A stretch of 64,000 nucleotides of DNA, taken from an uncultured Flavobacteriales bacterium (GTDB taxonomy: Bacteria > Bacteroidota > Bacteroidia > UBA10329). The notes under the pieces are model-generated. The model ran no database searches, was not told where the DNA came from, and saw nothing but the letters and a program-made list of their open reading frames with translations. Positions 13,644-39,738 of the stretch are shown one piece after another. Positions within the stretch are counted from its first letter, which is position 1. The number at the start of each line of letters is the position of its first letter. Location of the stretch: the NCBI GenBank assembly GCA_937900875.1, contig CALCGD010000268.1, positions 4,334-68,333 of the forward strand, read 5' to 3'. The translations under genes and the position numbers were made by a program.

Positions 13644-13737
13644 TTAGCAAAAATAGGGCTATTCCAAGGCTTCTAACTTTCGAGCCTTCCATAAAGATGA
13701 AATAAGGCTAACTTCGCGCGCCCAAAATCAACCTCAA

Positions 13738-15267
13738 ATGGAGAACAGAAAAGTTAGAGTAAGATTTGCGCCTAGCCCAACGGGTCCGCTACATATTGGA
13801 GGCGTTAGAACCGCTCTTTACAATTATCTACTTGCGAAGAAAATGGGTGGAGACTTCATTCTTAGAATTGAGGATACCGACCAAAATCGATATATCGAGG
13901 CTGCCGAAGAACATATTCTTGATGCTCTTGAGTGGTGCGGAATGAAGATAGATGAAGGCCCCAAAACAGGTGGGCCGTACGGCCCATATCGGCAGTCTGA
14001 ACGCAAAGAAAGTTATCGAGAGTTTGCAGACCAGCTTATTAAAAGCGGGCATGCTTACTATGCGTTTGATACTTCTGAAGAATTGACCGAAATGCGAGAA
14101 AGGTTGACCGCAGCAAAGGTTGCGGCACCGCAGTACAACGCGGTTACACGTGAAACAATGAAAAATTCGTTGACCCTTTCTGAGGATGAGGTCAAAAAGC
14201 GAATTGATGAAGGAGAACCGTACGTAATTAGGATTAAGATTCCTAGGAAAGAAGAAGTACGGTTTCATGATGCAATTCGAGGGTGGGTTGTCGTTCATAC
14301 GTCTCAAATGGACGATAAGGTTCTTTTCAAGTCAGACGGAATGCCTACTTATCATTTGGCAAATATTGTTGATGACTACAAGATGAAAATCACCCACGTA
14401 ATCCGTGGAGAGGAGTGGTTGCCATCAGCACCTCTTCATGTACTACTTTACAGATACTTAGGCTGGGAAGATGTAATGCCAATTTTGGCGCACTTACCCC
14501 TAATTCTAAAGCCAGACGGAAACGGAAAACTGAGCAAAAGAGATGGAGACCGATTGGGATTTCCTGTGTTTCCTTTGAATTGGATGGACCCAAAGTCAGG
14601 AGAACAATCACATGGTTATAAAGAACGTGGCTATTTTCCAGAAGCATTCGTGAACATGTTAGCAATGTTGGGCTGGAATCCAGGAACGCCACAAGAAATA
14701 TTCACTTTTGATGAATTGGTACAAGCATTTTCACTAGAACGTGTTGGGAAGTCAGGCTCCAAGTTTGACCCTGAAAAGGCGAAATGGTACAACCAGCAAT
14801 ATCTTAGAACAAGAGATGATGCTGAATTAGCAGAGATTTTTTCCAAATCCCTTGTAGAGAAAGAAATCAATGTAGACTTCGAGTACATTAAAGCTGTTTG
14901 TTCACTTATCAAAGAGAAAACGCAATTCACAAACGAATTTTGGGATTTTGGGAATTACTTCTTCCAAAAACCATCCTCATACGATGAAAAAGTGGTGAGC
15001 AAGCGTTGGAATGAGAGTGCTGAAAGGTTTTTCCCTGTTTTAGCAAATGCTTTGGAAAGCTTGAATAACTGGAAAGCTGACGAACTTGAAGGAACTTTTA
15101 AATCGACCGCAGAAGACTTAGAGATTAATCCAGGCCAAGTAATGCAATTGTTTAGGGTATTGCTTAGCGGGCAAGCCGGAGGTCCTGTCTTATTTGAAAT
15201 GACTGAGTTACTCGGAAAAGAGGAAGTAATTTCTCGTTTACGAGAAGGAGTAGAAAAACTAAAGTAA
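13738..15267 (+). CDS. gltX: Glutamate--tRNA ligase
   Basis: HIGH (PTGPLHIGG) and KMSKS-like (KLSKRDG) class I motifs; full-length GluRS architecture. Confidence 0.95.
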   Translation: MENRKVRVRFAPSPTGPLHIGGVRTALYNYLLAKKMGGDFILRIEDTDQNRYIEAAEEHILDALEWCGMKIDEGPKTGGPYGPYRQSERKESYREFADQLIKSGHAYYAFDTSEELTEMRERLTAAKVAAPQYNAVTRETMKNSLTLSEDEVKKRIDEGEPYVIRIKIPRKEEVRFHDAIRGWVVVHTSQMDDKVLFKSDGMPTYHLANIVDDYKMKITHVIRGEEWLPSAPLHVLLYRYLGWEDVMPILAHLPLILKPDGNGKLSKRDGDRLGFPVFPLNWMDPKSGEQSHGYKERGYFPEAFVNMLAMLGWNPGTPQEIFTFDELVQAFSLERVGKSGSKFDPEKAKWYNQQYLRTRDDAELAEIFSKSLVEKEINVDFEYIKAVCSLIKEKTQFTNEFWDFGNYFFQKPSSYDEKVVSKRWNESAERFFPVLANALESLNNWKADELEGTFKSTAEDLEINPGQVMQLFRVLLSGQAGGPVLFEMTELLGKEEVISRLREGVEKLK

Positions 15268-15620
15268 TGCAAGAGCTTTTTATTGAAGATATAAGTCTAC
15301 ACGCATACCATGGTTGCCTAGAAGAAGAAGGGAGAATTGGGGGGAAGTACAGGATTGACATCAAGGCGGTTGCAGATTTTAATGATTGTGCAGACTCTGA
15401 TGACCTTACAAAAACGGTTGATTATGTGGTCGTTTATAATTTAGTAAAAGCTGAAATGGCAGTAAGATCTAAGCTCATCGAAACAGTTGCTAAAAGAATT
15501 GCACTAAAACTTCAAGAACAATATGCGTGGGTAAACAGTTGGGAGGTAAGCCTCACCAAGTTTAATCCACCTGTTGGCGGAAGCCTTGGACAAAGCCGCG
15601 TTGTTTGGAAGGTAAATTGA
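15267..15620 (+). CDS. folB: Dihydroneopterin aldolase
   Basis: 117 aa, FolB-like (HAYHGCLEEE...GKYRIDIK). It overlaps the gltX stop by 1 nt. Confidence 0.85.
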   Translation: MQELFIEDISLHAYHGCLEEEGRIGGKYRIDIKAVADFNDCADSDDLTKTVDYVVVYNLVKAEMAVRSKLIETVAKRIALKLQEQYAWVNSWEVSLTKFNPPVGGSLGQSRVVWKVN

Positions 15621-15660
15621 AAGTGCTCTCATAAGGCACGGATTATTACTTTTGCACCAT

Positions 15661-15731
15661 GGTCGAGTGGCCGAGCGGTTAGGCAGTGGTCTGCAAAACC
15701 ATCTACAGCGGTTCAAATCCGCTCTCGACCT
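15661..15731 (+). tRNA. tRNA-Cys (anticodon GCA); CCA not encoded
   Basis: Manual fold: acceptor GGTCGAG/CTCGACC, D-arm GCC-GAGCGGTTA-GGC, anticodon stem GTGGT/ACCAT with loop CTGCAAA, short variable loop, T-arm AGCGG-TTCAAAT-CCGCT, discriminator U. Confidence 0.85.
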
Positions 15732-15734
15732 CAT

Positions 15735-15775
15735 AAAACCCCACCCGTTAAGGGTGGGGTTTTGTATTTTTGATA
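15735..15775 (+). terminator. Rho-independent terminator after tRNA-Cys
   Basis: CCCCACCC-GTTAA-GGGTGGGG hairpin followed by TTTTGTATTTTT. Confidence 0.8.
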
Positions 15776-15798
15776 GGAGTTATCTAATTAAATTCATC

Positions 15799-16590
15799 AT
15801 GAAACACATCGTTATTGTAATCGGATTAACGCTTTTTGTTCAAGCGTCCTACGCTCAGTATGGTGATTATTCTGTGCGGGTAGAAGTGGAAGGAAATGGC
15901 TTCGCACATTTTACCGAGGTTTATTTTGAAGATGATGGATGGAACCCACCTACAACGATTCCTACATATGGTTGGGATGGCTGTTGTGATGCGTTACTTA
16001 ACATGGGTAATCCTTGGCAGCCACATATTTTCACTCAAGTTGTTGCTCCACCAGCCCCAACAAATAATCACCGAATTTCAATTAACGGATTGCCACATGT
16101 GTTTGAGCATACCGAAGTTCCATTAGGGTTCTTACCTGGAGAATTGGCCCAATATACCTTCACATTTGAAGAACTTTATACTCTGCCAATAGGTATGTCG
16201 GTAGAGTTGGAGGACCACACCCAAAATGTAATTCAAGACCTTCTTGTAGATTCTGTCTATACGACTTGGGGTGCAGTTTCTGATGACGAGGAGCGATTTA
16301 CCTTGCATTTTTATCCGGAAAACGTAACCTCAACCTTTAGTCAAGACTCAAGAACTCGAACGCTAACATCTTGGTCAAACGAAGAAATGTTGGTAATAAG
16401 CGGAATTGAAACCCTTGGGCTGAAAATGGCAAAACTCACCGACATGTTTGGAAGAGTAGTATGGGAAGGAGCAGTTCCTGAAGGAGAAAAAGTTTTTTCT
16501 ATGAGTAGAAATCAGATAGCCTCTGGTGTATACATTTTTGAGTTAATTACTGATAAAACGAAACACCAATCGTTGAAAATTAGTATTTAA
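15799..16590 (+). CDS. Secreted protein with T9SS type-A C-terminal sorting domain. The ORF-track start at 15652 is an artefact that overlaps the tRNA.
   Basis: In-frame Met at 15799 gives signal peptide MKHIVIVIGLTLFVQASYAQ. The C-terminus (...GVYIFELITDKTKHQSLKISI) fits the Por_Secre_tail pattern. Confidence 0.75.
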   Translation: MKHIVIVIGLTLFVQASYAQYGDYSVRVEVEGNGFAHFTEVYFEDDGWNPPTTIPTYGWDGCCDALLNMGNPWQPHIFTQVVAPPAPTNNHRISINGLPHVFEHTEVPLGFLPGELAQYTFTFEELYTLPIGMSVELEDHTQNVIQDLLVDSVYTTWGAVSDDEERFTLHFYPENVTSTFSQDSRTRTLTSWSNEEMLVISGIETLGLKMAKLTDMFGRVVWEGAVPEGEKVFSMSRNQIASGVYIFELITDKTKHQSLKISI

Positions 16591-16607
16591 CAAAAAGTTT
16601 TAACTTC

Positions 16608-16817
16608 GTGTTCAAGTATTTAACAATGAAAAAGGCCGCTTCAATATTTTCAGTTTTCGCATTAGCCATCGGTGAGGGTTTTGCACAGCCACTGCCGCCT
16701 CCACCGCCAAACACGGCAATTCCTTTAGACGTAATCGTTTCGTTGTTAGTGTTATCGGGAATTATTTTTGGCGCAATTAAGTTGTACCGCAAGACAAACG
16801 TTACAAATCCAGCATAA
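16608..16817 (+). CDS. Mini membrane protein made of signal peptide, Pro-rich linker and C-terminal TM with basic tail. The start may be at the MKKAAS Met at 16626.
   Basis: MKKAASIFSVFALAIGEGFAQ / PLPPPPPNTAIPLD / VIVSLLVLSGIIFGAIKLY / RKTNVTNPA. Confidence 0.45.
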   Translation: MFKYLTMKKAASIFSVFALAIGEGFAQPLPPPPPNTAIPLDVIVSLLVLSGIIFGAIKLYRKTNVTNPA

Positions 16818-16841
16818 TTCACTTATTGGTAGATGACACCT

Positions 16842-17888
16842 CTATTTTAGCAGTGTTTGATCTCCTAATGCTCGGTTAGCTAAATCAGATAATTGTTGTC
16901 CCATTTTGTCGATGTCGGGCTCTCGAATTGACAAGTAATCAAGAGTACCATCTTGATTTTTTACAATTTTCATGTAGAATAGAAAAGAGCCTTCTGGGGT
17001 TTCTGATTCAAATTTACTCCTACCAAATTTCAAAGTGTAGAAGTTTAGAGTGTCTGAAGAGGGCTGTGTCACCACATATAATTGGTCGCTAAACCAACGC
17101 AACCGCTCTACACCATATTCATCATTAATATCAGAGAGTAAAGAGTGATTTTTCTCAAACTCCACCCAAGAGACGTCTTTCGTCTCATCAAATACCGAGT
17201 AGTAACCAATATGAAAAGCAGAATCTGATTCTGCTACTCCATACCATAGCGCAATATTTAAGGGGGTTGTGCCCACAAAAACAAGCTCTTTATTATCGGG
17301 TTCTAAGGCAAGGTCTTGTTGAAAGACGCTAGAAACAATCATCTTGTTGATTAATCCAGCAATAAGATAAGCGGAGCTAAGAGCAAGACCTAGATAATTG
17401 ATTTTCTGTCGCCAACCATTAGTTCTTCTTATAAAGGAAACAGCAATTACGCTGAGTAAAAATGGTAGCGTGTAAAACAAATCAACCACAAAAACGGTGG
17501 CAATACTTACACGGTAATCAGAAAACGGCAAGAATAGTTGGGTGCCATAGGTTGTTAAACAGTCCAGTAATGGATGTGTGAAAACGGCAAAGAAAAAAAG
17601 TGTCGTCCATTGTTTGAAGTTGGCCTCTGAAGATTTGCGGTACAACCAATTAACCAACCAACCTAAAACGGGTGCCATTAAAACAGCGAAGGTGATTGAA
17701 TGCGAAATTCCTCGGTGGAGCACTATTTCATCAATAGCTCCTCCACCTTTCAACCAAATATAAGCCACGTCTAAATCAGGAATTGTGCCGGCAATTCCGC
17801 CCCAAAGTAACGCCTTGTTTCCAATCTTTTTCCCAAGTACAGCTTCACCCACAGCCGCACCTAAAACAATTTGCGTTAAACTATCCAT
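16842..17888 (-). CDS. Membrane-bound metal-dependent hydrolase (YdjM/DUF457-like N-terminal domain) fused to an uncharacterised C-terminal domain
   Basis: N-terminus MDSLTQIVLGAAVGEAV...IPDLD..HRG.SHS with multiple TM helices; about 150-aa soluble C-terminal extension. Confidence 0.6.
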   Translation of the reverse strand: MDSLTQIVLGAAVGEAVLGKKIGNKALLWGGIAGTIPDLDVAYIWLKGGGAIDEIVLHRGISHSITFAVLMAPVLGWLVNWLYRKSSEANFKQWTTLFFFAVFTHPLLDCLTTYGTQLFLPFSDYRVSIATVFVVDLFYTLPFLLSVIAVSFIRRTNGWRQKINYLGLALSSAYLIAGLINKMIVSSVFQQDLALEPDNKELVFVGTTPLNIALWYGVAESDSAFHIGYYSVFDETKDVSWVEFEKNHSLLSDINDEYGVERLRWFSDQLYVVTQPSSDTLNFYTLKFGRSKFESETPEGSFLFYMKIVKNQDGTLDYLSIREPDIDKMGQQLSDLANRALGDQTLLK

Positions 17889-17965: not shown

Positions 17966-18370
17966 ATGTCAGTACAGGTGAACGACAGAAAACGTGCCCA
18001 GCAATTTTACAATGAAACCCGTGAATGGCTATCTGAAATAAATTCATTGGTTATTGATTTAGTGTTCTTTCAACGGATATTAGATATCTACGGCCTTAAA
18101 GTGTCTGACCCAGTCGAAAAACGAGATATTGAGGGACTCAAAAGCACCCTACTTTCTTTTGTCGAGCATCGAGTAGAAAATCAGAAGCTGAGAAATAAGG
18201 CTCACGAAGAATATTTGCAAAAAGTGATAGAGGATCGTGTGCTTTTAAAAGATAAAGACCTACCGTTTAAGCATAAAGATTTGGCTGGGGAAATGCAAGA
18301 CCTACGGCAAGGTGGTGGTAGACTAAAAAACGAGCTTTACGAGAAGGTTGAGCAACTAAAACAATTTTAA
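17966..18370 (+). CDS. Hypothetical cytoplasmic helical protein
   Basis: 134-aa ORF with coding-like composition. Its stop overlaps the next ORF start by 1 nt. Confidence 0.5.
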   Translation: MSVQVNDRKRAQQFYNETREWLSEINSLVIDLVFFQRILDIYGLKVSDPVEKRDIEGLKSTLLSFVEHRVENQKLRNKAHEEYLQKVIEDRVLLKDKDLPFKHKDLAGEMQDLRQGGGRLKNELYEKVEQLKQF

Positions 18371-18822
18371 TGCTAAGATGCCAATCGTCAATTGTACTCT
18401 TACTAATAACGGTACTTATTTCAGTTAACATTTCGGGGTTTGCTCAGCGTAGACCCAAGGACAAGATTCTTCACGCCAAAGTTTTTGTTGTAACAATGGA
18501 GCAACAAGAAATCAAAAAGAAAAAAGAGCTGCCACCATTTGAAGATGAGCTTACGTTTAAGTCAAATAAGTTCACCTCAAAACACATGCGCCACCCAGAC
18601 ACTGGAGGGTTCCAGCAAGGCGAGTATGCTATTTCAAAAAAGGAAGAACTGTTAGGTGAAATGGTGTACCATTTTGAGGCCGTAAACTCAAATTCCAAAG
18701 GAATGTCTTTAAAATGGGAGGGGCGGGTATTCGGTAATCAGATTGAGGGTACGGCCATCGTATCAAAAAATGGAAAAATTAAACAAGAATTTACTTTTTC
18801 CGGTACGCTCAAGATTAAATAA
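18370..18822 (+). CDS. Hypothetical secreted protein
   Basis: 150 aa; signal peptide (IVLLLITVLISVNISGFAQ); translationally coupled to the upstream ORF. Confidence 0.5.
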   Translation: MLRCQSSIVLLLITVLISVNISGFAQRRPKDKILHAKVFVVTMEQQEIKKKKELPPFEDELTFKSNKFTSKHMRHPDTGGFQQGEYAISKKEELLGEMVYHFEAVNSNSKGMSLKWEGRVFGNQIEGTAIVSKNGKIKQEFTFSGTLKIK

Positions 18823-18828
18823 CCGCAG

Positions 18829-19284
18829 TTATTTAACTACCTCGGCTCTGAACAACTGGTAGGGTACAGCATTCATTTCGCCATCTTGGTTTATCTGTAG
18901 GATACCTTTAAAAGTCACGACTTGATCGGTGCCAAAACGTGGGAATTTACCAGTAGGTAAAAGCTCAACAACGGTTTCTGGTCCTGCGTTGCCGCAGAAG
19001 AAACAATTTGCAAACGGATTGGCAGAAACCATGTACATCCCGAGTTCTATGTCTACCGGAATTACATACCCCTTCACCTTTATTTCCTTACCATTTAGGG
19101 CAAGTAAGTCTTTCGAGAATTCGGGAGGCTTGATGTTTACTTCAAATCCAAATGTTTCAGAATATTGGCGATGGAATTTAACTTGTGAAAAAGAACTCCA
19201 ACTAACAGTGGTTTGCGCAAATGTGCCAGAAATGAAGAAACAGGTAAGGGCAATGCTCAGCATTATTTTCGTTAGGAATTTCAT
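18829..19284 (-). CDS. Small secreted protein, paralog 1, with conserved CFFCGNAGPE motif (possibly DUF3299-like; family recalled, not verified)
   Basis: Signal peptide; motifs GYVIPVD and VSANPFANCFFCGNAGPETVVEL shared with the adjacent paralog. It is the last gene of the ABC operon. Confidence 0.65.
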   Translation of the reverse strand: MKFLTKIMLSIALTCFFISGTFAQTTVSWSSFSQVKFHRQYSETFGFEVNIKPPEFSKDLLALNGKEIKVKGYVIPVDIELGMYMVSANPFANCFFCGNAGPETVVELLPTGKFPRFGTDQVVTFKGILQINQDGEMNAVPYQLFRAEVVK

Positions 19285-19718
19285 TTCAGCAAAGCACCAG
19301 TTAATATATAATTACAATGTTCTAGGTCGTCCCAGTTTAGCTTTAAACGCCCTTTAAAAGTCGCTATTTCATCTGTTTTGAAGGCTTCTTTTACTCCCTT
19401 AGGAAATTGGAGTTCCATTACACTTTCTGGGCCAGCATTTCCGCAGAAAAAACAAGACGCAAACGGATTGGCAGAAAGCACATAGTAACCAGACTCTACG
19501 TCTACTGGAATTACATATCCTTCAATTACAATTAAAGCACTATCTAAACCAAGTACTTCTTTGCTGTAAGCTGGATACCAAACGGTTTCATCATATTTTG
19601 GGTAGTACTTTTCTTCCCAGGTAACTTTTGCCAAAAGAGCCCAGTCAATTGGTTTATGCTGGGCCTGTACTAGTAGTCCTGCCAAAACAAAAAGAGAGGA
19701 AATCAACACTTTATTCAT
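19281..19718 (-). CDS. Small secreted protein, paralog 2, with conserved CFFCGNAGPE motif
   Basis: Signal peptide; GYVIPVD...LSANPFASCFFCGNAGPESVMEL. It has 4-nt and 8-nt overlaps with its neighbours. Confidence 0.65.
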   Translation of the reverse strand: MNKVLISSLFVLAGLLVQAQHKPIDWALLAKVTWEEKYYPKYDETVWYPAYSKEVLGLDSALIVIEGYVIPVDVESGYYVLSANPFASCFFCGNAGPESVMELQFPKGVKEAFKTDEIATFKGRLKLNWDDLEHCNYILTGALLK

Positions 19719-21557: not shown

Positions 21558-21623
21558 TTTCTTATATAATGCAAAACTAAGGTGTTGAGCGGAGGTTCGT
21601 ACTTTTGACCGACATTCGTAGCT

Positions 21624-22607
21624 ATGCTTGAAAGACCAAGAAGAAATCGTGCCTCTGAGACCATTAGAAGTATGGTTCGCGAAACAAGACTAGATCTTGC
21701 AAACCTCATTTTCCCACTTTTTGTGGTAGACGGCACGGGAAAGAAAGAGCCGATTGGCGCCTTACCCGGAATTTTTCGATTTTCAGAAGATTACGTGGTA
21801 AAGGAGGTTGAGGAATGTATGAATTTGGGACTGAGGTCTTTCGTGCTTTTTCCAGCCGTTGAAGACTCTCTTAAAGACAAAACGGCAACCTATAGCTACA
21901 GCGAAAAGAATTTTTACTTGCGCATTATTTCAAGACTTAAGAAGGAGTTTCCGGAATCTTGTCTTATGAGCGATGTAGCTATGGACCCATATAGCTCTGA
22001 CGGGCATGATGGACTGGTGGAAAACGGCAGAATTCTGAATGACGAAACCCTCGGCATTCTGGGCAAAATGGCCGTGGCGCAAGCCGAAGCCGGAATAGAT
22101 ATCATAGGACCATCAGACATGATGGACGGTCGCGTACAGCACATTCGCGAAGAACTGGACGATGAAGACTTCGAAAATGTGGCTATAATGAGCTATTGCG
22201 CCAAATATGCTAGCGCATACTACGGGCCATTTAGAGAAGCTCTGGCAAGCGCTCCAAAATCTGGAGATAAGAAAACTTATCAGATGGACCCAGCAAATAA
22301 GTGGGAAGCTGTTAGAGAAGGAGAATTAGATGTGGCAGAAGGAGCAGATTTTCTCATGGTAAAGCCAGCTCTTTTGTACTTGGATGTCATTCATCTATTG
22401 AAAGAAAAATTTGAGCTTCCAATTGCCGCTTATAATGTGAGTGGCGAATATGCAATGCTTAAAGCAGCGGCAGCCAATGGTTGGTTAAATTACGATCAGG
22501 CTATGCCGGAAATGCTACTGAGCTTTAAGCGAGCTGGAGCAACCTCCATTCTTACTTATGCCGCAAAAGAATACGCACAAATGTTAAAAGAAGGCCGCCT
22601 TGCTTAA
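21624..22607 (+). CDS. hemB: Porphobilinogen synthase (delta-aminolevulinate dehydratase)
   Basis: N-terminus RPRRNR...; full-length ALAD architecture and conserved active-site region. Confidence 0.92.
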   Translation: MLERPRRNRASETIRSMVRETRLDLANLIFPLFVVDGTGKKEPIGALPGIFRFSEDYVVKEVEECMNLGLRSFVLFPAVEDSLKDKTATYSYSEKNFYLRIISRLKKEFPESCLMSDVAMDPYSSDGHDGLVENGRILNDETLGILGKMAVAQAEAGIDIIGPSDMMDGRVQHIREELDDEDFENVAIMSYCAKYASAYYGPFREALASAPKSGDKKTYQMDPANKWEAVREGELDVAEGADFLMVKPALLYLDVIHLLKEKFELPIAAYNVSGEYAMLKAAAANGWLNYDQAMPEMLLSFKRAGATSILTYAAKEYAQMLKEGRLA

Positions 22608-23607
22608 GATTGATATGCATACGCATATTATGCCGCATACTATGCCGGATTTTGCCCGAAAATTTGGGTATGGCGATTTTATAATGCTTGACCATGTGGA
22701 GGCTGGCGCGGCAAATATGATGCAGGGACGAAGGTTTTTCCGAAAAATTACTGAGAACTGCTGGAATCCAGAAATACGCATATCAGAATATGAACAGTAC
22801 AATACACAGGTTCAAGTTGTATGCACTATTCCTGTGTTGTTTTCGTATTGGGCTGAGCCAAAAGATGGGGCTGAGGTGTCCAGGTTTTTAAATGATGATT
22901 TAGCTAAATCAATAGAACCGTTTTCAAAGAATTACATAGGACTAGGCACGCTTCCTATGCAGGATACCAAACTTGCCATACAAGAACTCAAACACTGCAA
23001 AGAGTTGGGTTTCCCAGGGGTACAAATAGGCTCCAACATCAATGACAAGAATCTAGACGAACCAGAATTCTACCCAATTTTCGAAGCGTGTCAAGACCTT
23101 GGAATGGCAGTTTTTGTTCACCCATGGAACATGATGGGAATGGACCAAATGAAAAAATATTGGCTGCCCTGGTTGGTTGGAATGCCGGCAGAAACGTCTC
23201 GTGCAATTTGCTCAATGGTATTCGCGGGCATTTTCGAAAAACTTCCAAACCTTCGTGTTTGTTTTGCGCATGCTGGAGGCTCATTTATACCAACGATTGG
23301 TAGAATTGAGCACGGATTTGATTGTAGACCAGATTTGGTTGCAATAGATAATGATGTGAACCCGAGAGAATACCTCGGCAAATTTTGGGTCGACTGCATT
23401 ACGCACGATCCGGATTCGTTGCGCTTTATTTTAGACAAAGTTGGTTCTGAGAAAGTTTGTCTAGGAAGCGATTATCCATTTCCATTGGGAGACTTAGAAA
23501 TTGGAAGGTTTATTGAGGAAATGAATTTGCCTCAAACCGATATTGATAACATTTTCTGCAATTCTAGTATGGATTGGTTAGCTCTCGATAAAACCCAATT
23601 CAGCTGA
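22600..23607 (+). CDS. Amidohydrolase-2 family protein (ACMSD-like metal-dependent decarboxylase/hydrolase)
   Basis: N-terminal metal-binding motif KIDMHTHIMPH; TIM-barrel amidohydrolase-2 pattern (HAGG, GSDYPFP). Confidence 0.8.
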   Translation: MLKIDMHTHIMPHTMPDFARKFGYGDFIMLDHVEAGAANMMQGRRFFRKITENCWNPEIRISEYEQYNTQVQVVCTIPVLFSYWAEPKDGAEVSRFLNDDLAKSIEPFSKNYIGLGTLPMQDTKLAIQELKHCKELGFPGVQIGSNINDKNLDEPEFYPIFEACQDLGMAVFVHPWNMMGMDQMKKYWLPWLVGMPAETSRAICSMVFAGIFEKLPNLRVCFAHAGGSFIPTIGRIEHGFDCRPDLVAIDNDVNPREYLGKFWVDCITHDPDSLRFILDKVGSEKVCLGSDYPFPLGDLEIGRFIEEMNLPQTDIDNIFCNSSMDWLALDKTQFS

Positions 23608-23617
23608 ATCTTTCGGT

Positions 23618-24748
23618 ATGAATGTAATTTTCAATAAGCCGCTGGTTTTAGGAACGGAGCAAGAATTACTAGGTCAAGTGATTGCTTCCGGTCAGTTTTC
23701 AGCAAATGGGGAGTACACTCGAAAGTGCCATCAAATTTTAGAGAATGAACTAAACTACAGAAAAGCACTTTTAACAACCTCATGCACATCAGCATTGGAG
23801 TTAAGCGCCTTATTACTAAATATTGGCCTTGGCGATGAGGTAATAATTCCTTCATACGCATTTGTTACCACGGCAAATGTGTTTGCCAACAGAGGAGCCA
23901 AAATTGTTTTTGCCGATAGTAGAGAAGATAACCCTAACATAAATGAGGCACAGATTAGCGGCTTAATCACGTCCAAAACTAAAGCAATTGTAGCATTGCA
24001 CTATGGTGGTGTTGCTTGCAACATGACCGAGATTGTTGCAATAGCTAGAAAGCACAACATTGCTGTAATTGAAGATAATGCTCAGGGTATTGGTTCAACT
24101 TACCAAGGCTCTCCTTTGGGAGGCATTGGCGATTTAGGTGCAATTTCGTTTCACGAGACTAAAAACGTTCATTGTGGAGAGGGTGGGGCGCTTTTAGTAA
24201 ATAATCAGTCGCTTATCAATAAGGCAGATGTTGCTTGGGATATGGGAACCAATAAAGCCGATTATAAAGCTGGTAAGGTTGATAGTTATGGATGGGTTGC
24301 TACTGGCTCTTCATATTATCCCTCAGAGCTTAATGCTGCATTTTTATTTAGTCAATTACAGAAGCTAAGTAGCGTTAACGAACAAAGACTGATGCTGTGG
24401 AATCAGTATGACCGAGGCCTAGAAAATCTTGAGGCCAATGGTGTTATTAAAAGACCGTTAATACCAGAAAACACCACCCATAATGCCCATACTTTTTACC
24501 TTGTTCTCAATAACAGGAAGGAAAGAGATGGCCTAATTACTTTTCTTGCCGAGCAAGGAATTGGCGCTCCATTTCATTTTCAATCTCTTCATCAGTCTCC
24601 TTACTTCAAAGATCAGTATGAAGGGCCAGAATTGAGAAATTCAGACCAGTATACAGACTGTCTAATTAGACTACCTCTGCATCATGGATTAAGGCCAAAT
24701 GAGTTAGAGTATGTCGTTAATAATGTTCAAGCATATTACAAGAACTAA
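23618..24748 (+). CDS. wecE: dTDP-4-amino-4,6-dideoxygalactose transaminase (DegT/DnrJ/EryC1 family, WecE-like)
   Basis: Close alignment by eye to E. coli WecE along its length (SCT.ALE, PSY.FV.TANAF, GAKIVF.D, FHETKN PLP-lysine motif). Confidence 0.85.
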   Translation: MNVIFNKPLVLGTEQELLGQVIASGQFSANGEYTRKCHQILENELNYRKALLTTSCTSALELSALLLNIGLGDEVIIPSYAFVTTANVFANRGAKIVFADSREDNPNINEAQISGLITSKTKAIVALHYGGVACNMTEIVAIARKHNIAVIEDNAQGIGSTYQGSPLGGIGDLGAISFHETKNVHCGEGGALLVNNQSLINKADVAWDMGTNKADYKAGKVDSYGWVATGSSYYPSELNAAFLFSQLQKLSSVNEQRLMLWNQYDRGLENLEANGVIKRPLIPENTTHNAHTFYLVLNNRKERDGLITFLAEQGIGAPFHFQSLHQSPYFKDQYEGPELRNSDQYTDCLIRLPLHHGLRPNELEYVVNNVQAYYKN

Positions 24749-24749
24749 C

Positions 24750-26093
24750 ATGACGTTGAAGCAGGTTTTAGCTGGCTTATCCACTCTTGCATTTTTCATT
24801 TACCACTTAACGGTTGATTTCTACTATCGCCCAAATGCAGATGACTTTGCCGGAATGTATTATGCTTCAAATGGCTTGCCTGGTCTAGGCTATGCTGTAC
24901 GCTTTTATTTCGAATGGGAAGGGCCGTTTCTGAGTATGATAGTTCAAGGTCTATGGATGCGATTATTGTATTTAGGAGTACCAGGCATCATCATTTTAGG
25001 CTCAATAAAAGTTATGCTATTCGTCTCATCTGTTTATATGACAGAAGGCGTAATTGAATGGATATCTGGCAAAAAAGACTGGGCATTGGCTGTAATAGGC
25101 GGTGCAGCAATTACTACAACCATGTATCTTATTTCTAGCGAACAATCAGAGATTTGGCATTGGGTAATGGGGTCGGTTGTGTACCTGCACCCCCTTTTAT
25201 TTTTACAGGTAGCTATTGGCCTCTTATTACGGGGCAAATTCTACCATGCAATTTTACCGCTTGCCTATATTATGGAAAGCAGGGCAACCTATGCTGTTTT
25301 GTTTTTCGGGCTGATTACGCTTATTACAATTTGGGCTTGGGTAAAGAATCTTGAGTGGAAAAAGAGGGCACTTTTAATGGAAGCTATCCTTTTGGTCTCG
25401 TTGCTCATTTATATTCTAGCACCCGGAAATAGTAAGCGCGTTAGCCAAGGAGGATTTGATATGGAGCACTACCTCTACGAGTACTTTAAGGAAATTAGAA
25501 ACCTCTTTCTTTCATTCAATTTAGCTAAAACGGATCGCCTGTTAATGGGCCTGATGATGCTTGTACCATTATTGCCGAATCTCAATAGCCAGCGATTTCA
25601 AACAATAAAGAAGGGGATTGCCTTGCCAGGCCTAGCTTACGTGTCATTTGTTTTTGCCCATGGGGTAGTATTTGTTCTTGCTACAGGCTATGCTGCTTGG
25701 TTCAGGGTTTATTCCATGCACACTTTCCTGTTTATTATCTGTGCACTTTTTTACGCGTACCTGGGCTATCAATTTTTTGTGAAAGAAAGACTACATGCCC
25801 GAATTATCAGTACAATTCCGATAATTGGATTCGTATTAATGTGTTTCAGTTTGTACAAAAATTTCCCCGATTATATTACAAAGGGCAAAGCATATAGCGA
25901 AGCTTATGATGTGAGATGCGATAAGATTTTTAGCTATCAGGGTTTAGAATCTGACACGCTTAGAATTGCCAAAATGCCAGACTCAGGCGTACTCTATTAC
26001 TGGGAGTTTTCTGAAAACCCAAAGCACTGGATAAACAAGGACTTTCGAACACGGTACGACATACCGTTTTATGTAGCCTTGGAGGCAGAATAA
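24750..26093 (+). CDS. Polytopic integral membrane protein, candidate GT-C-like glycosyltransferase or polymerase. Start adjusted to the Met after the wecE stop.
   Basis: About 448 aa with at least 10 predicted TM helices; no soluble domains. Confidence 0.55.
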   Translation: MTLKQVLAGLSTLAFFIYHLTVDFYYRPNADDFAGMYYASNGLPGLGYAVRFYFEWEGPFLSMIVQGLWMRLLYLGVPGIIILGSIKVMLFVSSVYMTEGVIEWISGKKDWALAVIGGAAITTTMYLISSEQSEIWHWVMGSVVYLHPLLFLQVAIGLLLRGKFYHAILPLAYIMESRATYAVLFFGLITLITIWAWVKNLEWKKRALLMEAILLVSLLIYILAPGNSKRVSQGGFDMEHYLYEYFKEIRNLFLSFNLAKTDRLLMGLMMLVPLLPNLNSQRFQTIKKGIALPGLAYVSFVFAHGVVFVLATGYAAWFRVYSMHTFLFIICALFYAYLGYQFFVKERLHARIISTIPIIGFVLMCFSLYKNFPDYITKGKAYSEAYDVRCDKIFSYQGLESDTLRIAKMPDSGVLYYWEFSENPKHWINKDFRTRYDIPFYVALEAE

Positions 26094-26137
26094 AACACAA
26101 CTGAACACAAGCGGTATTATATCTTAGTTTTGTTACA

Positions 26138-26845
26138 ATGGCTGAAAAAGTTGAGCTTTCTGTAGTAATTCTGTGTTATAGATCTGGCGCAGGTGTAGTG
26201 GATTTCATTAAGAAAGCCGAAGACCTAATTAAGACGCTTACTGATAGCTACGAACTTGTGCTCGTTGCCAATTATATCGAGGGTTCGGGCGACCGTACTA
26301 GAGACTACGTATTAAAACTTGCTGACGACAATTCTAAATGCGTTGCCTTGTGTAAACCAAAGGAAGGCATGATGGGTTGGGATATGCGCTCTGGAATGGA
26401 CGCTGCCAATGGCAAGTATATCTGTGTAATTGATGGCGATGGGCAATTCCCAATTGAAAGTATATCTGCCTGTTTTTTGGAAGTAAGAAAAGGTCAGTAC
26501 GATTTGGTTAAAACGTATCGAACAAAACGCGGAGACGGAGCTTATAGAAGGCTAATAAGCAAGGTTTATAATTTCCTTTTTTCGATCCTGTTTCCCGGAA
26601 TCAATTCTGAAGACGCTAACTCTAAGCCTAAAATTCTGAAGGCGAGTGCTTATCATCAAATGAAATTGAAATCAGACGATTGGTTTATTGATGCAGAAAT
26701 AATGCTAAACATTAGAGATAAAAAAATGACATTTTACGAACTTCCCATAGAGTTTTATGAGCTTGAAGGCCGTTCGTCATTTGTAAAACCAGCAGCCATT
26801 TGGGAATTCATGAAAAACCTGTTTAACTACAGGTTTGGCAAATAA
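26138..26845 (+). CDS. Glycosyltransferase family 2 (DPM1-like, soluble)
   Basis: VVILCY...D.D GT-A signatures (VIDGDGQ); 235 aa. Confidence 0.8.
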   Translation: MAEKVELSVVILCYRSGAGVVDFIKKAEDLIKTLTDSYELVLVANYIEGSGDRTRDYVLKLADDNSKCVALCKPKEGMMGWDMRSGMDAANGKYICVIDGDGQFPIESISACFLEVRKGQYDLVKTYRTKRGDGAYRRLISKVYNFLFSILFPGINSEDANSKPKILKASAYHQMKLKSDDWFIDAEIMLNIRDKKMTFYELPIEFYELEGRSSFVKPAAIWEFMKNLFNYRFGK

Positions 26846-26848
26846 ACA

Positions 26849-27730
26849 ATGGAAAAAAAGCAGCGCATTTTTGTAACCGGAGCCTCATCCGAATTAATGC
26901 TGCACGCGCTTTCTGGATTTGACCACAATAAGTATGAAATTACTGGGCTTACAAGAAACCCTAATCCGTCTAATATTGACGGATTGCGATGGGTTATAGG
27001 AGCCATTGAATCGCCTGAAAGCTATTCGGAAGAAATAGCAGATGTGGACATAATAATTCACGCTGCAGCAATTACCCACACCAAAAAAGAAAAGGAGTAC
27101 TTCCGCGTTAATCATTTGGGTACAACAAACCTGATTAACGCAGTTTCAAAAGGCAAAAGCCCACTGTTCGTTTTTATTTCTTCAAGAGTTGCTAGTGAAG
27201 ACAGCGGTGCCTATGGAGTTAGTAAGTTGCGTGCAGAAGAGGAGGTTCAAAAGCTTGAAAATTGGGTGATAGTTAGACCATCTGAAGTTTATGGTGGAAG
27301 CAAGTCAGAGGGAATTGAAAAAACCATACAATCGGCCATATCAGGCGGAACCCAGCTTTGCCCTGTAGGCATACAAAGCAAATTGTATCCCATTCATATT
27401 TCTGATGCGGCTTTAGCTATCACTTCCGCTGTTCTAAACCAACAGTCACGAAATAAAATTGTGATTGTCAATGGCAGCAAAGGGTATACGTTTAAAGCAC
27501 TGCTATGGTCCATTCAAGCCATTTCAGGAAAAAGAATGACCATTATTCCTATCCCAAAATGGCTTTTGCAATTGGCGGCATTAGTCTCTTCTGTTTTACC
27601 ACTAAACATTGGCTTTGTACCTGATCAGGTGCAGCGCCTTTATTCCAAAAAAGAACACAATAAATTGTGCGAGTGCTTGGTGCAATTGGAAGATTACATA
27701 AAGCAAGAGGTTGAAAAACGAAATGGATAA
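26849..27730 (+). CDS. NAD-dependent epimerase/dehydratase (extended SDR)
   Basis: Rossmann-type nucleotide-binding motif (IFVTGASS), YxxxK-type catalytic region, 293 aa. Confidence 0.75.
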   Translation: MEKKQRIFVTGASSELMLHALSGFDHNKYEITGLTRNPNPSNIDGLRWVIGAIESPESYSEEIADVDIIIHAAAITHTKKEKEYFRVNHLGTTNLINAVSKGKSPLFVFISSRVASEDSGAYGVSKLRAEEEVQKLENWVIVRPSEVYGGSKSEGIEKTIQSAISGGTQLCPVGIQSKLYPIHISDAALAITSAVLNQQSRNKIVIVNGSKGYTFKALLWSIQAISGKRMTIIPIPKWLLQLAALVSSVLPLNIGFVPDQVQRLYSKKEHNKLCECLVQLEDYIKQEVEKRNG

Positions 27731-28616
27731 GATTTCGATTATTATTCCGTGCTATCAAAACGAAGAAAATCTTCCGGTTACCGCAGAAGCGCTGAAATCA
27801 AACGAAGGGTTATTTGGCGATAACACGTCATTTGAATATGTGCTTATTGATGATGGATCTACAGACAAAACCTGGCAATCCATTCTCGAAATTAAACGCA
27901 GATGGCCAGATTCGTTTTCAGGAATTCGTCTGTCTAAAAACACTGGTTCGTATAATGCTATTTGTGCCGGATTGAAACGGGCAACAGGGAATTGTATTGT
28001 GGTAATGGCGGCTGATTTACAAGACCCACCTAGCCATATTTTCACTATGTATGACGCGTGGACAAAAGGAGCTAAGCTAGTGCTAGCTAATCGAACTGAA
28101 AGATTGGACAAATGGCCATCTAGACAAATGGCTACTGCGTATCATTTTGTCATTAAAACAATGGCACTACCTAATTTGCCCAAAGGAGGCTTCGATTTCT
28201 GTTTGTTCGATAATCAGATTAAAGATGAAATGATTGAAAAATGGATTTCAAACACAAATTCATTATTTATTCTTCTTTCTCTTAAGCACAAATATGTCCT
28301 TGCTCCTTATAAAAAGCGAAAGCGTACAATTGGCCAATCTCAATGGACCTTTAGCAAGAAGTTGAAGTTGTTTGTTAATACAGTTTTGGCCTTTTCAATC
28401 ATCCCTCCGTTAGCATTTTATACGGGAAGTTTGTTTCTAGGAACAATTTGTTTGCTTGTAAATAGAAAGGTTTTCCAAGATCAGTTTCCATGGAGTCAAC
28501 TTCTCATTCTTTCTGCGGTACTCTTATTTGGATTGGGGCTTGCAATAAGAATTGCCTATTCCAGATTTCAAAATGCGCAGAAACAACCTCCGTTTGTTGT
28601 GGAAGAATCGGTTTGA
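27711..28616 (+). CDS. Glycosyltransferase family 2 with C-terminal TM helices (GtrB/ArnC-like polyprenyl-phosphate sugar transferase)
   Basis: SIIIPCYQNEENL...IDDGSTD...AADLQDP GT-A motifs plus two C-terminal TM helices. Confidence 0.8.
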   Translation: MKNEMDKISIIIPCYQNEENLPVTAEALKSNEGLFGDNTSFEYVLIDDGSTDKTWQSILEIKRRWPDSFSGIRLSKNTGSYNAICAGLKRATGNCIVVMAADLQDPPSHIFTMYDAWTKGAKLVLANRTERLDKWPSRQMATAYHFVIKTMALPNLPKGGFDFCLFDNQIKDEMIEKWISNTNSLFILLSLKHKYVLAPYKKRKRTIGQSQWTFSKKLKLFVNTVLAFSIIPPLAFYTGSLFLGTICLLVNRKVFQDQFPWSQLLILSAVLLFGLGLAIRIAYSRFQNAQKQPPFVVEESV

Positions 28617-28672: not shown

Positions 28673-30802
28673 ATGAACAACATGAGAACCAAGATTATTA
28701 CGAGTGTAATGGCGATAGCTTTTTTAGCTAGCTGCAACACAAAAAACACAAAATCAGATATGAAAGCGCCAATTGCCGAAATAAACCCACACGAAATGAC
28801 CATTCATGGTCATACACGTACAGACAACTATTTCTGGCTTAGAGAGCGAGAAGACAAGAAGGTCATCAAGTATTTGGAGGATGAAAATGCCTACACCGAC
28901 AACGCCTTGGCTGATACCAAGCAGTTTCAGGAAGACCTGTACAAGGAAATGCGGGCGAGAATAAAGGAAGACGATGAAACAGTGCCTTACAAAGACAACG
29001 GTTACTATTACTACACCCGATACGAAGAAGGAAAAGAGTACAAGTTACACTGCCGAAAGAAAGAGTCTCTTGATGCTGCAGAAGAGATTTTTATGGATGA
29101 AAATTTGCTTGCAGAAGGACATGATTATTTCTCATTAGGCGGATTAGAAATAAGCGATGACAATAAGATTGCTGCTTTTGGTATCGATACCGTAAGCCGC
29201 AGAATATATACCCTGTATTTCAAAAACTTGGAAACAGGAGAGATTTATTCTGACCAAATCACGGGCACATCTGGTGGAGGCGCTTGGGCTAAAGACAATA
29301 AAACGTTTTTCTACATAAGTCAAGATGAAGAAACCCTACGTTCAGACCGCATTCTTAGACATCAATTAGCAACCGAACAAGCCGCAGATGTGGAGGTGTT
29401 TAACGAGAAAGACGAGACGTTTAATTGCTACGCATGGAGAACAAAAAGTAAAGACTTGATAATGATTGGTTCTTTCCAAACAGTCTCTTCGGAATTCAGA
29501 ATGCTTGATGCGGGAAATCCAACTGGCGAGTTTAAAATAATTCAACCTCGTGAACGAGACCACGAATACAGCGTTTCGCATTTTGAGAACAAGCTATACA
29601 TCTCAACCAACTGGAATGCTAAGAATTTCAGATTAATGGAAACTACTATTGACAAACCAGGAAAGGAGAATTGGAAAGAGGTTATTGCTCACCGAGAAGA
29701 AACGCTGCTTGAAGGCATCGAAATTTTCAAAAACTTTATGGTTGTTAATGAAAGAACAGATGGCCTATCTCAGCTTAGAATAATTAATCATTCTACCGAA
29801 GAAGAGCACTATTTAGACTTTGGCGAAGCTGCTTATACCAGCTATATCGGCACCAATATGGATTTTGACACTGAAGTGCTTCGATATGGGTATTCATCTC
29901 TTACAACGCCATGGTCTATGTTGGACTACAACATGAATACCAAAGCTAAAAACCTGCTAAAAGAACAAGAAGTAATTGGTGATTTTGATCGAGCCAATTA
30001 CACAACAGAACGTGTTATGGTAACTGCAGACGATGGAACGCAGGTTCCTATGTCTATTGTTTACCGAAAAGGATTGAAGAAAGACGGTTCTAACCCCACG
30101 TTGCTATACGCGTACGGCTCTTACGGCTCAAGCATGGACCCATATTTCAGTTCTGTTAGACTGAGTTTATTGGATAGAGGGTTTGTTTATGCTTTAGCTC
30201 ATATCCGAGGAGGTCAAGAAATGGGTCGCGGGTGGTATGATGACGGAAAATTGTTGAACAAGAAAAACACCTTCACCGATTTCATCAATTGCGGAGAATA
30301 CCTGATTGCGGAGAAGTATACGACCACTGAAGGCTTGTTTGCCATGGGCGGATCGGCAGGTGGCCTTCTAATGGGTGCGGTAGTAAATATGCGACCAGAC
30401 CTCTGGAAAGGAGTTGTGGCAGCCGTTCCATTTGTTGATGTAATCACTACCATGTTAGATGAAACAATTCCGCTTACTACAGGTGAGTATGACGAGTGGG
30501 GTAATCCTAATGTGAAAGAGTATTACGATTACATTTTGAGCTACTCTCCGTACGATAATGTGGAAGTACACGAATACCCAAATATGCTGATTACAACAGG
30601 TTTACACGATAGCCAAGTGCAATATTGGGAACCAGCCAAGTGGGTTGCAAAACTACGCGTGAATAAAACAGACGACAATCTGTTACTGCTTCACACTAAT
30701 ATGGAAGCAGGGCATGGTGGTGCTAGTGGGCGTTTCGAAAGCTTAAAAGAAACAGCGATGGAATACGCCTTTATGTTCAAATTAGCAGGTATTACCAAGT
30801 AA
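28673..30802 (+). CDS. ptrB: Oligopeptidase B (protease II), prolyl oligopeptidase family S9A, lipoprotein
   Basis: N-terminal beta-propeller plus C-terminal alpha/beta hydrolase with GGSAGG around the catalytic Ser; lipoprotein signal (AFLASC). Confidence 0.9.
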   Translation: MNNMRTKIITSVMAIAFLASCNTKNTKSDMKAPIAEINPHEMTIHGHTRTDNYFWLREREDKKVIKYLEDENAYTDNALADTKQFQEDLYKEMRARIKEDDETVPYKDNGYYYYTRYEEGKEYKLHCRKKESLDAAEEIFMDENLLAEGHDYFSLGGLEISDDNKIAAFGIDTVSRRIYTLYFKNLETGEIYSDQITGTSGGGAWAKDNKTFFYISQDEETLRSDRILRHQLATEQAADVEVFNEKDETFNCYAWRTKSKDLIMIGSFQTVSSEFRMLDAGNPTGEFKIIQPRERDHEYSVSHFENKLYISTNWNAKNFRLMETTIDKPGKENWKEVIAHREETLLEGIEIFKNFMVVNERTDGLSQLRIINHSTEEEHYLDFGEAAYTSYIGTNMDFDTEVLRYGYSSLTTPWSMLDYNMNTKAKNLLKEQEVIGDFDRANYTTERVMVTADDGTQVPMSIVYRKGLKKDGSNPTLLYAYGSYGSSMDPYFSSVRLSLLDRGFVYALAHIRGGQEMGRGWYDDGKLLNKKNTFTDFINCGEYLIAEKYTTTEGLFAMGGSAGGLLMGAVVNMRPDLWKGVVAAVPFVDVITTMLDETIPLTTGEYDEWGNPNVKEYYDYILSYSPYDNVEVHEYPNMLITTGLHDSQVQYWEPAKWVAKLRVNKTDDNLLLLHTNMEAGHGGASGRFESLKETAMEYAFMFKLAGITK

Positions 30803-39255: not shown

Positions 39256-39738
39256 ATGAAAATCCTCGCCCTATCAATAGCCTTGTTTTTAGCCCCGTTA
39301 CACGAGTTTCATTCGTCTGTAACGCAAGTAGACTACAACGACAAGAATAAGTCGCTAGAGATAACGGTGAGGTTATTTACAGACGATCTATGTATTGCTT
39401 TGGAAAAGACAGGTGCTCCTAATTTGAAATTAGGCACACAAGCCGAGCCACCTTCCGCCAACGAGTATTTGGAAAAATACCTGCAAAAACACCTTCAGTT
39501 TGTGGTAAATGGAAAGCCTGTACAGTTCAAATATTTAGGCAAAGAAGCGCAACTAGACGCAACCTGGTGCTACATAGAAATTGAAAAAGTAAGCAACCTA
39601 AAAAAACTGGAAGTTGAAAACACCGTATTGCTTTCCGATTTTGAGGACCAAACCAATATGGTAAATCTCAACATAAACGGAAGGAAGAAAAGCGGCCTAG
39701 CCAGAAACGGCAATGCTAAGTTGAAGTTTGAACTTTAG
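39256..39738 (+). CDS. Hypothetical secreted protein
   Basis: 160 aa, signal peptide, 1 nt after the upstream stop. Confidence 0.5.
   Translation: MKILALSIALFLAPLHEFHSSVTQVDYNDKNKSLEITVRLFTDDLCIALEKTGAPNLKLGTQAEPPSANEYLEKYLQKHLQFVVNGKPVQFKYLGKEAQLDATWCYIEIEKVSNLKKLEVENTVLLSDFEDQTNMVNLNINGRKKSGLARNGNAKLKFEL

Follow-up and report, generated by a model that had tools for sequence, protein, structure and literature searches.

What does a row of five genes, wedged between housekeeping genes on the chromosome of an uncultured Flavobacteriales bacterium, contribute to its host? The genes form an island at positions 23618-28616 of a 64,000-nucleotide stretch of contig CALCGD010000268.1 (hereafter the window), where they are tightly packed and all lie on the + strand. 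In order, they encode a WecE-type aminotransferase, a polytopic membrane protein that we call the GT-C protein after its fold, a short glycosyltransferase of family 2 (GT2) named GT2s, a short-chain dehydrogenase/reductase (SDR), and a longer GT2 with transmembrane (TM) helices named GT2tm. We propose with moderate confidence that this island specifies a lipid-carrier ('three-component') system for extracytoplasmic glycosylation with an amino sugar. This reading is supported by the membership of the GT-C protein in Pfam family PF19528 and by its DD motif, by the match of the aminotransferase to the WecE equivalog model, by the GtrB/ArnC matches, by the linkage of these genes and by their tight packing on the same strand.

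The aminotransferase had been named WecE in the sequence-only reading, an earlier note made from the DNA letters without database searches, and this identification holds. The protein passes the NCBIfam equivalog model NF008687 (490 bits against a cut-off of 375), lies narrowly above the cut-off of TIGR02379 (437.6 bits against 434.85) and aligns over its full length to E. coli WecE (4piw/4zah; E = 5.7e-102; residues 3-373 against 22-394). This alignment keeps the SFHETKN motif, whose lysine we take to be the residue that binds pyridoxal phosphate (PLP). There is a much lower score of 197 bits against the ArnB model, whose cut-off is 631. The predicted product is therefore the deoxythymidine diphosphate (dTDP)-linked sugar dTDP-4-amino-4,6-dideoxygalactose (dTDP-Fuc4N).

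When PDB sequences were searched with a profile of the membrane protein's alignment, only a spurious match to Nup35 came back, and for this reason a comparison of folds was needed. The AlphaFold model, based on an alignment of 26 homologues (pLDDT 92.9, pTM 0.91), has about 13 long helices followed by a C-terminal alpha/beta unit of only ~50 residues. Foldseek places PglB, STT3 and AftA at the top with probabilities of 0.96-1.0, while transporters reach at most 0.2, and ALG12, PIG-M and Pmt4 rank above ArnT in the fold comparison. As modelled, the protein has the polytopic GT-C fold. The sequence-only reading had described a candidate novel GT-C transferase of 460 amino acids with at least 10 TM helices and no soluble domain, and had named a Wzy polymerase or a transporter as the outcome that would speak against it. 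The helices and the fold stand, and the model resembles neither of the two; the protein is instead 447 amino acids long, carries the small C-terminal unit and is not without a family, as its score on PF19528 is above threshold.

Specifically, the GT-C protein scores 45 bits on PF19528 (gathering threshold 27), a family called DUF6056 in one copy of Pfam and GT_STM0557_N in a newer release. The newer name derives from the Salmonella locus STM0557-0559, which in S. Typhimurium adds glucose in alpha-1,4 linkage onto O-antigen galactose (PMC3688519). An exhaustive HMMER search yields 678 cluster representatives at E <= 1e-3, just 15 of them at E <= 1e-30, and 43 of 56 family representatives also match PF19528. 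There are about 40 proteins in the close clade, all from uncultured Bacteroidota/Flavobacteriales assemblies, and the GT-C protein is only 15-27% identical to distant members of the family. Members of the distant representatives' clusters are annotated solely as 'hypothetical protein'. A word-indexed profile search of proteins gave no relatives outside the tight clade, and a tblastn search of 50,697 phage records gave no match and hence no evidence for a phage origin. We regard the protein, on the basis of these comparisons, as a divergent branch of an existing and essentially uncharacterised family.

Directly after the first TM helix of the GT-C protein is the motif YR(P/L)(N/S)ADDF, in which ADDF occupies residues 30-33 and DD residues 31-32. 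D31 is invariant across the clade of 26 sequences, and D31, D32, Y53, W138, Y145, G226, R230, R319 and G413 are each at least 90% conserved among the 56 full-length family representatives, which share 15-47% identity. The fold would place the DD motif in the first extracytoplasmic loop. The neighbouring genes for GtrB/ArnC/DPMS-like GT2 enzymes suggest that the donor may be a polyprenyl-phosphate-linked sugar.

Both GT2 enzymes of the island had been classified from the letters alone, one as a soluble DPM1-like enzyme and the other as a GtrB/ArnC-like enzyme with C-terminal TM helices; the second of these assignments is confirmed. The matches of GT2tm among PDB sequences are exclusively polyprenyl-phosphate glycosyltransferases, namely GtrB (5ekp, 1.8e-25), ArnC (9hwj, 1.9e-20, with an alignment that extends through the TM region) and DPMS (2.5e-17). 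Its alignment with GtrB retains DDGS, ADLQDPP and the FDFCLFD/GDFRLMD block, in keeping with a GT-A catalytic domain that bears a DxD-type motif, and its two TM segments span residues ~214-244 and 260-278. GT2s has no TM segment, and its fold appears closest to that of DPMS. The best NCBIfam matches of GT2tm, PgfS NF047588 (108.2 bits, cut-off 500) and ArnC NF007986 (78.6 bits, cut-off 529), remain far below the cut-offs, and GT2s likewise falls far under the same two values with 42 and 45.9 bits, respectively. Both enzymes can therefore be viewed as working like ArnC and PgfS without being their orthologues.

Comparison with related loci (L001-L017) places the island in a variable slot. Wherever the flanks are on the contig, hemB and an Amidohydro_2 gene lie on one side and the oligopeptidase B gene on the other, and the variable region begins and ends exactly at the island boundaries drawn in the sequence-only reading. 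Identity to the window is 78-89% for the flanks and 76-88% for GT2s, against 48-61% for WecE, 35-56% for the GT-C protein and 47-48% for the SDR. There are three kinds of content in this slot. Free-amine islands have the order wecE-GT-C-GT2s-SDR-GT2tm in the window and the same set minus GT2tm in L001, L002 and L010. Acetyltransferase islands (L007, L008 and L012) read GT2tm'-GNAT-WecE-DegT2-short GT2-GT-C, where GT2tm' denotes the TM-bearing GT2 that travels with WecE in other genomes and DegT2 a second DegT aminotransferase, and L003 has the same core rearranged. The methyltransferase island of L011 reads GT2tm'-methyltransferase-WecE-GT-C, with a second methyltransferase on the opposite strand.

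The GNAT protein of the sister islands is most similar to WecD, which acylates dTDP-Fuc4N, although its 94.5 bits do not reach the cut-off (219), and its partner WecE in these relatives passes the WecE equivalog at 535 bits. These two observations indicate that alleles of the slot differ in amine tailoring, and a WecD-like GNAT fits a Fuc4N/Fuc4NAc donor. Each locus examined that encodes a close relative of the GT-C protein also encodes an orthologue of WecE together with one or more GT2 enzymes of the GtrB/ArnC/DPMS class. At L015, where the GT-C protein is just 22% identical to that of the window, the order GT2tm'-GNAT-WecE-GT-C is retained (WecE 62% identical to L008 and 48% to the window; GT2tm' 50% to L008). 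In L017 the GT-C gene is followed by that of a 338-amino-acid GT2tm, and at L016 a GT-C protein of 26% identity is encoded ~4-5 kb from an Arn-like formyltransferase-GT2tm-SDR-DegT set. The arrangement of the sister slots is as expected of a serotype-like variable locus, and because the island sits in a hypervariable slot, its biological role is likely to be surface-antigen diversification.

It can be added for L016 that the set at 13544-17362 resembles a split arnA/arnC/arnB and resides in a polysaccharide cluster of the ABC-transporter type with GT10/GT11 fucosyltransferases.

GT2s and the SDR constitute a separate, phylum-wide module. There are 2555 homologues of GT2s at E <= 1e-10, and the enzyme is 57-61% identical in the cultured Polaribacter vadi and Arcticibacterium. 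The SDR adjoins GT2s in the window, L001, L002, L008, L010, L013 and L014. In Polaribacter vadi and Arcticibacterium, the gene after GT2s and the SDR encodes a polytopic membrane protein (476 or 494 amino acids), and at L008 a 622-amino-acid membrane protein is encoded directly upstream of the pair, such that a different polytopic protein accompanies the module in each lineage examined. These three proteins have no match in Pfam or NCBIfam and no similarity to one another or to the PF19528 GT-C protein; hhalign of the GT-C profile against the Polaribacter and Arcticibacterium proteins likewise gave no similarity, and the Polaribacter protein has no match among PDB sequences. That they are GT-C enzymes is a guess, prompted by a 'D..GHPP' loop seen by eye. 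Probably the pair makes a second, conserved polyprenyl-phosphate sugar, and with its variable membrane protein it looks like a gtr-style combination of a conserved donor unit with a variable transferase.

The SDR had been read from the letters as an epimerase or dehydratase. Its membership of the SDR superfamily is borne out, with invariant S111/S112, Y122 and K126 and with a nucleotide loop, TGASSxL, that is an atypical glycine motif and yet invariant. The more specific assignment is not, as the sequence carries none of the signatures that mark known 4,6-dehydratases or epimerases of sugars. By eye, the protein seems to be missing the Thr-Asp-Glu motif that we take to mark 4,6-dehydratases of the RmlB type. 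Among solved structures it comes closest to the complex I subunit NDUFA9/NUEM and to CapD/PseB, and among NCBIfam models to HpnA, on which it scores 47 bits (cut-off 368). Residues 232-250 form a hydrophobic segment towards the C-terminus.

In the proposed lipid-carrier pathway, WecE would convert dTDP-4-keto-6-deoxyglucose, supplied by rmlA/rmlB elsewhere in the genome, to dTDP-4-amino-4,6-dideoxygalactose. The amine would stay free in the window allele, because the island is without an acyl- or methyltransferase. A GT2 of the GtrB/ArnC/DPMS type would then load the sugar on undecaprenyl phosphate at the cytoplasmic face of the membrane; GT2tm is the more likely loading enzyme and GT2s the alternative. 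A flippase would carry the lipid-linked sugar across the membrane, and the PF19528 GT-C protein, via the DD motif of its first external loop, would transfer it to a periplasmic or surface glycan or to a glycoprotein.

Several observations weigh against this proposal. To our knowledge, no polyprenyl-phosphate GT2 that accepts a dTDP-sugar has been characterised, a literature search found no publication that combines WecE, GT-C and undecaprenyl phosphate, and the case is built on sequence, a fold model and synteny. A Pfam scan of about 48 open reading frames (ORFs) of the window, which took in all but two of those with at least 150 amino acids and four shorter ones close to the island, found no rmlA, rmlB, acetyltransferase, or flippase of the GtrA or ArnE/F type, as the sequence-only reading had noted for the neighbourhood. 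The PF19528 match is partial, covering GT-C residues 182-437 against profile positions 189-433 of 442 (the C-terminal 55%). The islands of L001, L002 and L010 have no TM-bearing GT2, and the window's GT2tm is only 27% identical to GT2tm', and thus is not its orthologue. The actual orthologues of GT2tm are TM-less proteins of 248-263 amino acids (L008 9233-9979, L007 9222-9983, L012 5619-6410). Finally, GT2s is conserved among related islands in the manner of a housekeeping gene and is present in some genomes without a nearby aminotransferase, which argues that it is not the carrier of the variable amino sugar.

With regard to GT2tm, identity to the TM-less orthologues of L007 and L008 is 44-48%, and the C-terminal tail PF[VI][VI][DE]E is common to both forms although the latter are devoid of both TM helices. 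The membrane anchor may thus have been lost by an internal deletion or gained by an insertion.

The main rival account, unlikely in our view, is that two unrelated systems are neighbours. GT2s and the SDR, perhaps with GT2tm, would make a conserved neutral polyprenyl-phosphate sugar that is the donor for the GT-C protein, WecE would feed a cytoplasmic glycosyltransferase encoded elsewhere, and the GT-C protein would transfer no amino sugar. Such a division agrees with the phylum-wide occurrence of the GT2s-SDR pair, without an aminotransferase and beside unrelated polytopic proteins in Polaribacter and Arcticibacterium, with the conserved promoter-like box of its own (see below), with the gap in conservation between GT2s (76-88%) and WecE and GT-C (35-61%), and with the position of GT2s as the sole GT2 beside the GT-C gene in L001, L002 and L010. 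However, WecE is next to or near a PF19528 GT-C gene in every architecture seen, including those of L007, L011, L012 and L015 that do without the pair, and L008 has a separate 622-amino-acid membrane protein beside the pair in addition to a complete WecE/GT-C module. Moreover, the scanned ORFs in and near the island include no cytoplasmic Fuc4N transferase, phosphoglycosyltransferase or Wzx.

Perhaps, instead, the island is an analogue of Arn, FlmK or Lgm, wherein the GT-C protein places a free-amine sugar on lipid A or on the phosphate region of the core to lessen negative charge and confer resistance to cationic peptides. The sugar of the window variant, which has no N-acyl- or N-methyltransferase, would indeed be cationic; the set of aminotransferase, ArnC-like GT2, SDR and GT-C mirrors ArnB, ArnC, the ArnA dehydrogenase and ArnT; and L016 ties a member of the family to an Arn-like gene set. 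We nevertheless consider this account distinctly improbable, given that the sister islands acetylate the amine (WecD-like GNAT) or probably methylate it, which would remove or alter the charge, and that the namesake of PF19528 acts on O-antigen and not on lipid A. The GT-C protein also stands outside the ArnT/PMT family, with ALG12, PIG-M and Pmt4 scoring above ArnT, and strong strain variability is better suited to antigenic or phage-receptor variation than to a fixed resistance. A polytopic protein with no large soluble domain and no sequence match to solved structures might also be imagined to be a polymerase of the Wzy type, a ligase for O-antigen or a transporter/flippase, but this reading was rejected on fold and has next to no probability.

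Returning to the lipid-carrier reading, a wider proposal can be built on it that we rate as rather improbable when taken as a whole. The island would then represent one of the alleles of a serotype locus for tailoring a surface amine (free, N-acetylated or N-methylated), and it would include the first polyprenyl-phosphate glycosyltransferase to accept a dTDP-4-amino-4,6-dideoxyhexose. In addition, GT2s and the SDR would form a phylum-wide two-subunit polyprenyl-phosphate sugar synthase, in which the SDR serves as the membrane anchor of the TM-less catalytic subunit or as a remodeller of the lipid-linked sugar, and across Bacteroidota it would supply membrane transferases that are interchangeable and differ from lineage to lineage.

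Three-component systems (Gtr, Arn, CsbB/YfhO, Pgf) influence phage receptors, resistance to antibiotic peptides and antigenicity. Few sugars are known to take this route, and if our reading is true, a dTDP-derived 4-amino-4,6-dideoxyhexose joins the list, one branch of DUF6056 gains a function, and a strain-variable surface-decoration locus is revealed in abundant uncultured aquatic Flavobacteriales. The GT2s-SDR pair, which has over 2500 homologues and as yet no functional assignment, may be the more general lead.

The five genes had been described as one cluster. All are in place, but they belong to two evolutionary modules and probably to two transcription units. The window contains far fewer copies of the Bacteroidota -7 motif TAnnTTTG than expected (37 against 66.6 ± 7), and 5 of its 18 copies on the + strand are located 5-24 nt upstream of a gene start (21600, 26125, 17954, 31608, 51516). 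On these grounds we treat it as a useful marker of transcription units in this genome, and scans for sigma-70 promoters and intrinsic terminators, whose counts were at or below shuffled expectation, were set aside in its favour. Irrespective of which gene lies upstream, L001, L002, L008, L010 and the window all keep the box before GT2s, together with its surrounding block, 12-13 nt ahead of the orthologous ATG. There is no further TAnnTTTG box on the + strand between the hemB box and 26125, and none precedes wecE or the genes for the GT-C protein, the SDR or GT2tm. The two units would be hemB-amidohydrolase-wecE-GT-C, with the hemB box as its probable start, and GT2s-SDR-GT2tm.

Spacing between the genes is short. 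The intervals from hemB through the amidohydrolase gene and wecE to the GT-C gene are -8, 10 and 1 nt, followed by 44 nt before GT2s and 3 nt between GT2s and the SDR gene, and the start of GT2tm overlaps the SDR stop by 8 nt. The membrane-protein ORF opens at 24711; its start is the ATG at 24750, one base past the wecE stop, in a public gene call (identical protein) and in all homologues. For GT2tm, the public gene call starts at the ATG at 27723, and the listed ORF begins slightly earlier, with a TTG at 27711. No phage genes were found among the flanking ORFs scanned. The left flank probably is co-transcribed with wecE, yet stands outside the glycan pathway. The Amidohydro_2 gene was entertained as the pathway's deacetylase and rejected because it is conserved like hemB (84-89%) and is located outside the variable block; by eye, its product resembles decarboxylases of the ACMSD type.

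Table 1. Positions of the island genes, their flanks, promoter-like boxes and related loci; unprefixed positions are those of the window, and L numbers designate comparison loci.
Feature	Position	Strand	Remark
Bacteroidota -7 promoter-like box TACTTTTG	21600..21607	+	17 nt upstream of the hemB ATG
Conserved left flank: hemB (porphobilinogen synthase) and Amidohydro_2 gene	21624..23607	+	84-89% identical in related genomes
wecE, PLP-dependent dTDP-4-keto-6-deoxy-D-glucose 4-aminotransferase	23618..24748	+	DegT family; NF008687, TIGR02379
Membrane glycosyltransferase with modelled GT-C fold, 447 aa	24750..26093	+	divergent PF19528 (DUF6056/GT_STM0557_N) member
-7 promoter-like box TAGTTTTG	26125..26132	+	6 nt upstream of the GT2s ATG, within the 44-nt gap
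GT2s, TM-less DPM1/DPMS-like GT2, 235 aa	26138..26845	+	candidate catalytic subunit of a polyprenyl-phosphate sugar synthase
NDUFA9/HpnA-like extended SDR, 293 aa	26849..27730	+	always paired with GT2s
GT2tm, GtrB/ArnC-like polyprenyl-phosphate glycosyltransferase, 297 aa	27723..28616	+	two C-terminal TM helices
Conserved right flank: oligopeptidase B-like peptidase	28673..30802	+	78-82% identical in related genomes; marks island end
Sister islands in the same slot	L011 6076-11195; L007 5319-11359; L008 5392-11371		
GT2s-SDR loci	window 26138-27730; L013 7001-10021; L014 7001-10085; L008 11495-15175		
Type IX secretion/gliding context	42792-44405; 47255-51343 (-); 53640-54932 (-); 59793-61283		

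Elsewhere in the window, the type IX secretion and gliding genes, GldM among them, confirm a Bacteroidota host. There is a 1362-amino-acid cargo protein with PKD/Ig/CHU_C domains in a GC-rich stretch (0.50 against ~0.41), and there are two further cargo proteins with a Por_Secre_tail, one of them a Kelch beta-propeller and the other a glucose/sorbosone dehydrogenase; such cargo proteins are possible glycoprotein acceptors. On the - strand at 39735-41833, a 345-amino-acid protein of the AIR-synthase family, possibly a selenophosphate synthetase, adjoins a 354-amino-acid rhodanese-domain protein, and this pair may be a tRNA 2-selenouridine system. Four small ORFs at 17966-19718 (134, 150, 151 and 145 amino acids) have no Pfam match, and genes of the same size are found at matching positions in related genomes, beside an ABC transporter of the MacB/FtsX type.

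Among known systems, the island can be set beside Gtr, which glucosylates O-antigen in Salmonella and Shigella and consists of the flippase GtrA, the undecaprenyl-phosphate-glucose synthase GtrB and a serotype-specific GtrC, and to which STM0557-0559 belongs. GtrC proteins diverge fast while GtrA and GtrB are conserved (PMC3688519), and the island similarly combines conserved donor-making genes with a fast-diverging membrane transferase, has a GT-C protein in PF19528 and encodes in GT2tm a match to the GtrB structure (E = 1.8e-25). Unlike Gtr, it has no GtrA-like gene among the ORFs scanned, its GT-C protein is just a distant PF19528 relative of GtrC, and the presence of WecE predicts a 4-amino-4,6-dideoxyhexose and not glucose. 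In comparison with Arn, which delivers 4-amino-4-deoxy-L-arabinose (L-Ara4N) to lipid A, the aminotransferase is of the WecE type and falls short of the ArnB model, the SDR is NDUFA9/HpnA-like and not ArnA-like, the GT-C family differs from that of ArnT, and the island has no formyltransferase, deformylase or ArnE/F. Judged by these assignments, the island is not a member of the Arn pathway, but it appears to work like Gtr and Arn.

Gram-positive three-component systems pair CsbB/GtrB with a GT-C of the YfhO type for the modification of teichoic acids or proteins. In the Pgf operon of S. mutans (PgfS-PgfM1-PgfE-PgfM2), a GT-A enzyme and an epimerase are combined with GT-C membrane proteins (PMC12041528). 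The module of GT2s, SDR and membrane protein mirrors this arrangement, and PgfS is the best NCBIfam match of GT2tm, although the score is far below the cut-off. The GT-C proteins of Pgf belong to the YfhO family and Pgf has no aminotransferase, whereas the envelope considered here is that of a Gram-negative member of the Bacteroidota.

The predicted donor sugar resembles that of the Fuc4NAc branch of enterobacterial common antigen (RmlA/RmlB, WecE, WecD, WecF), with which the island shares WecE, the WecD-like GNAT of its sisters and a predicted dTDP-Fuc4N(Ac). In that pathway, however, WecF adds the sugar in the cytoplasm to an intermediate linked to undecaprenyl diphosphate, while the island has no WecF, WecA, Wzx or Wzy and has polyprenyl-phosphate-type GT2 enzymes and a GT-C protein instead. 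Amino-sugar systems with a GT-C include FlmF2/NaxD/FlmK of Francisella (galactosamine, lipid A), LgmABC of Bordetella (glucosamine) and PpgS/Rv3779 of mycobacteria (galactosamine, arabinogalactan), wherein an ArnC/GtrB-like GT2 makes the polyprenyl-phosphate amino sugar and the GT-C transfers it outside the cytoplasm. These systems start from UDP-N-acetylhexosamine and deacetylate it on the lipid, in contrast to the island, in which there is no deacetylase and the amine would come from a transaminase that acts on a dTDP-6-deoxy sugar. Most likely, then, the island brings a new sugar to a familiar type of system, which extends the known scheme and overturns nothing.

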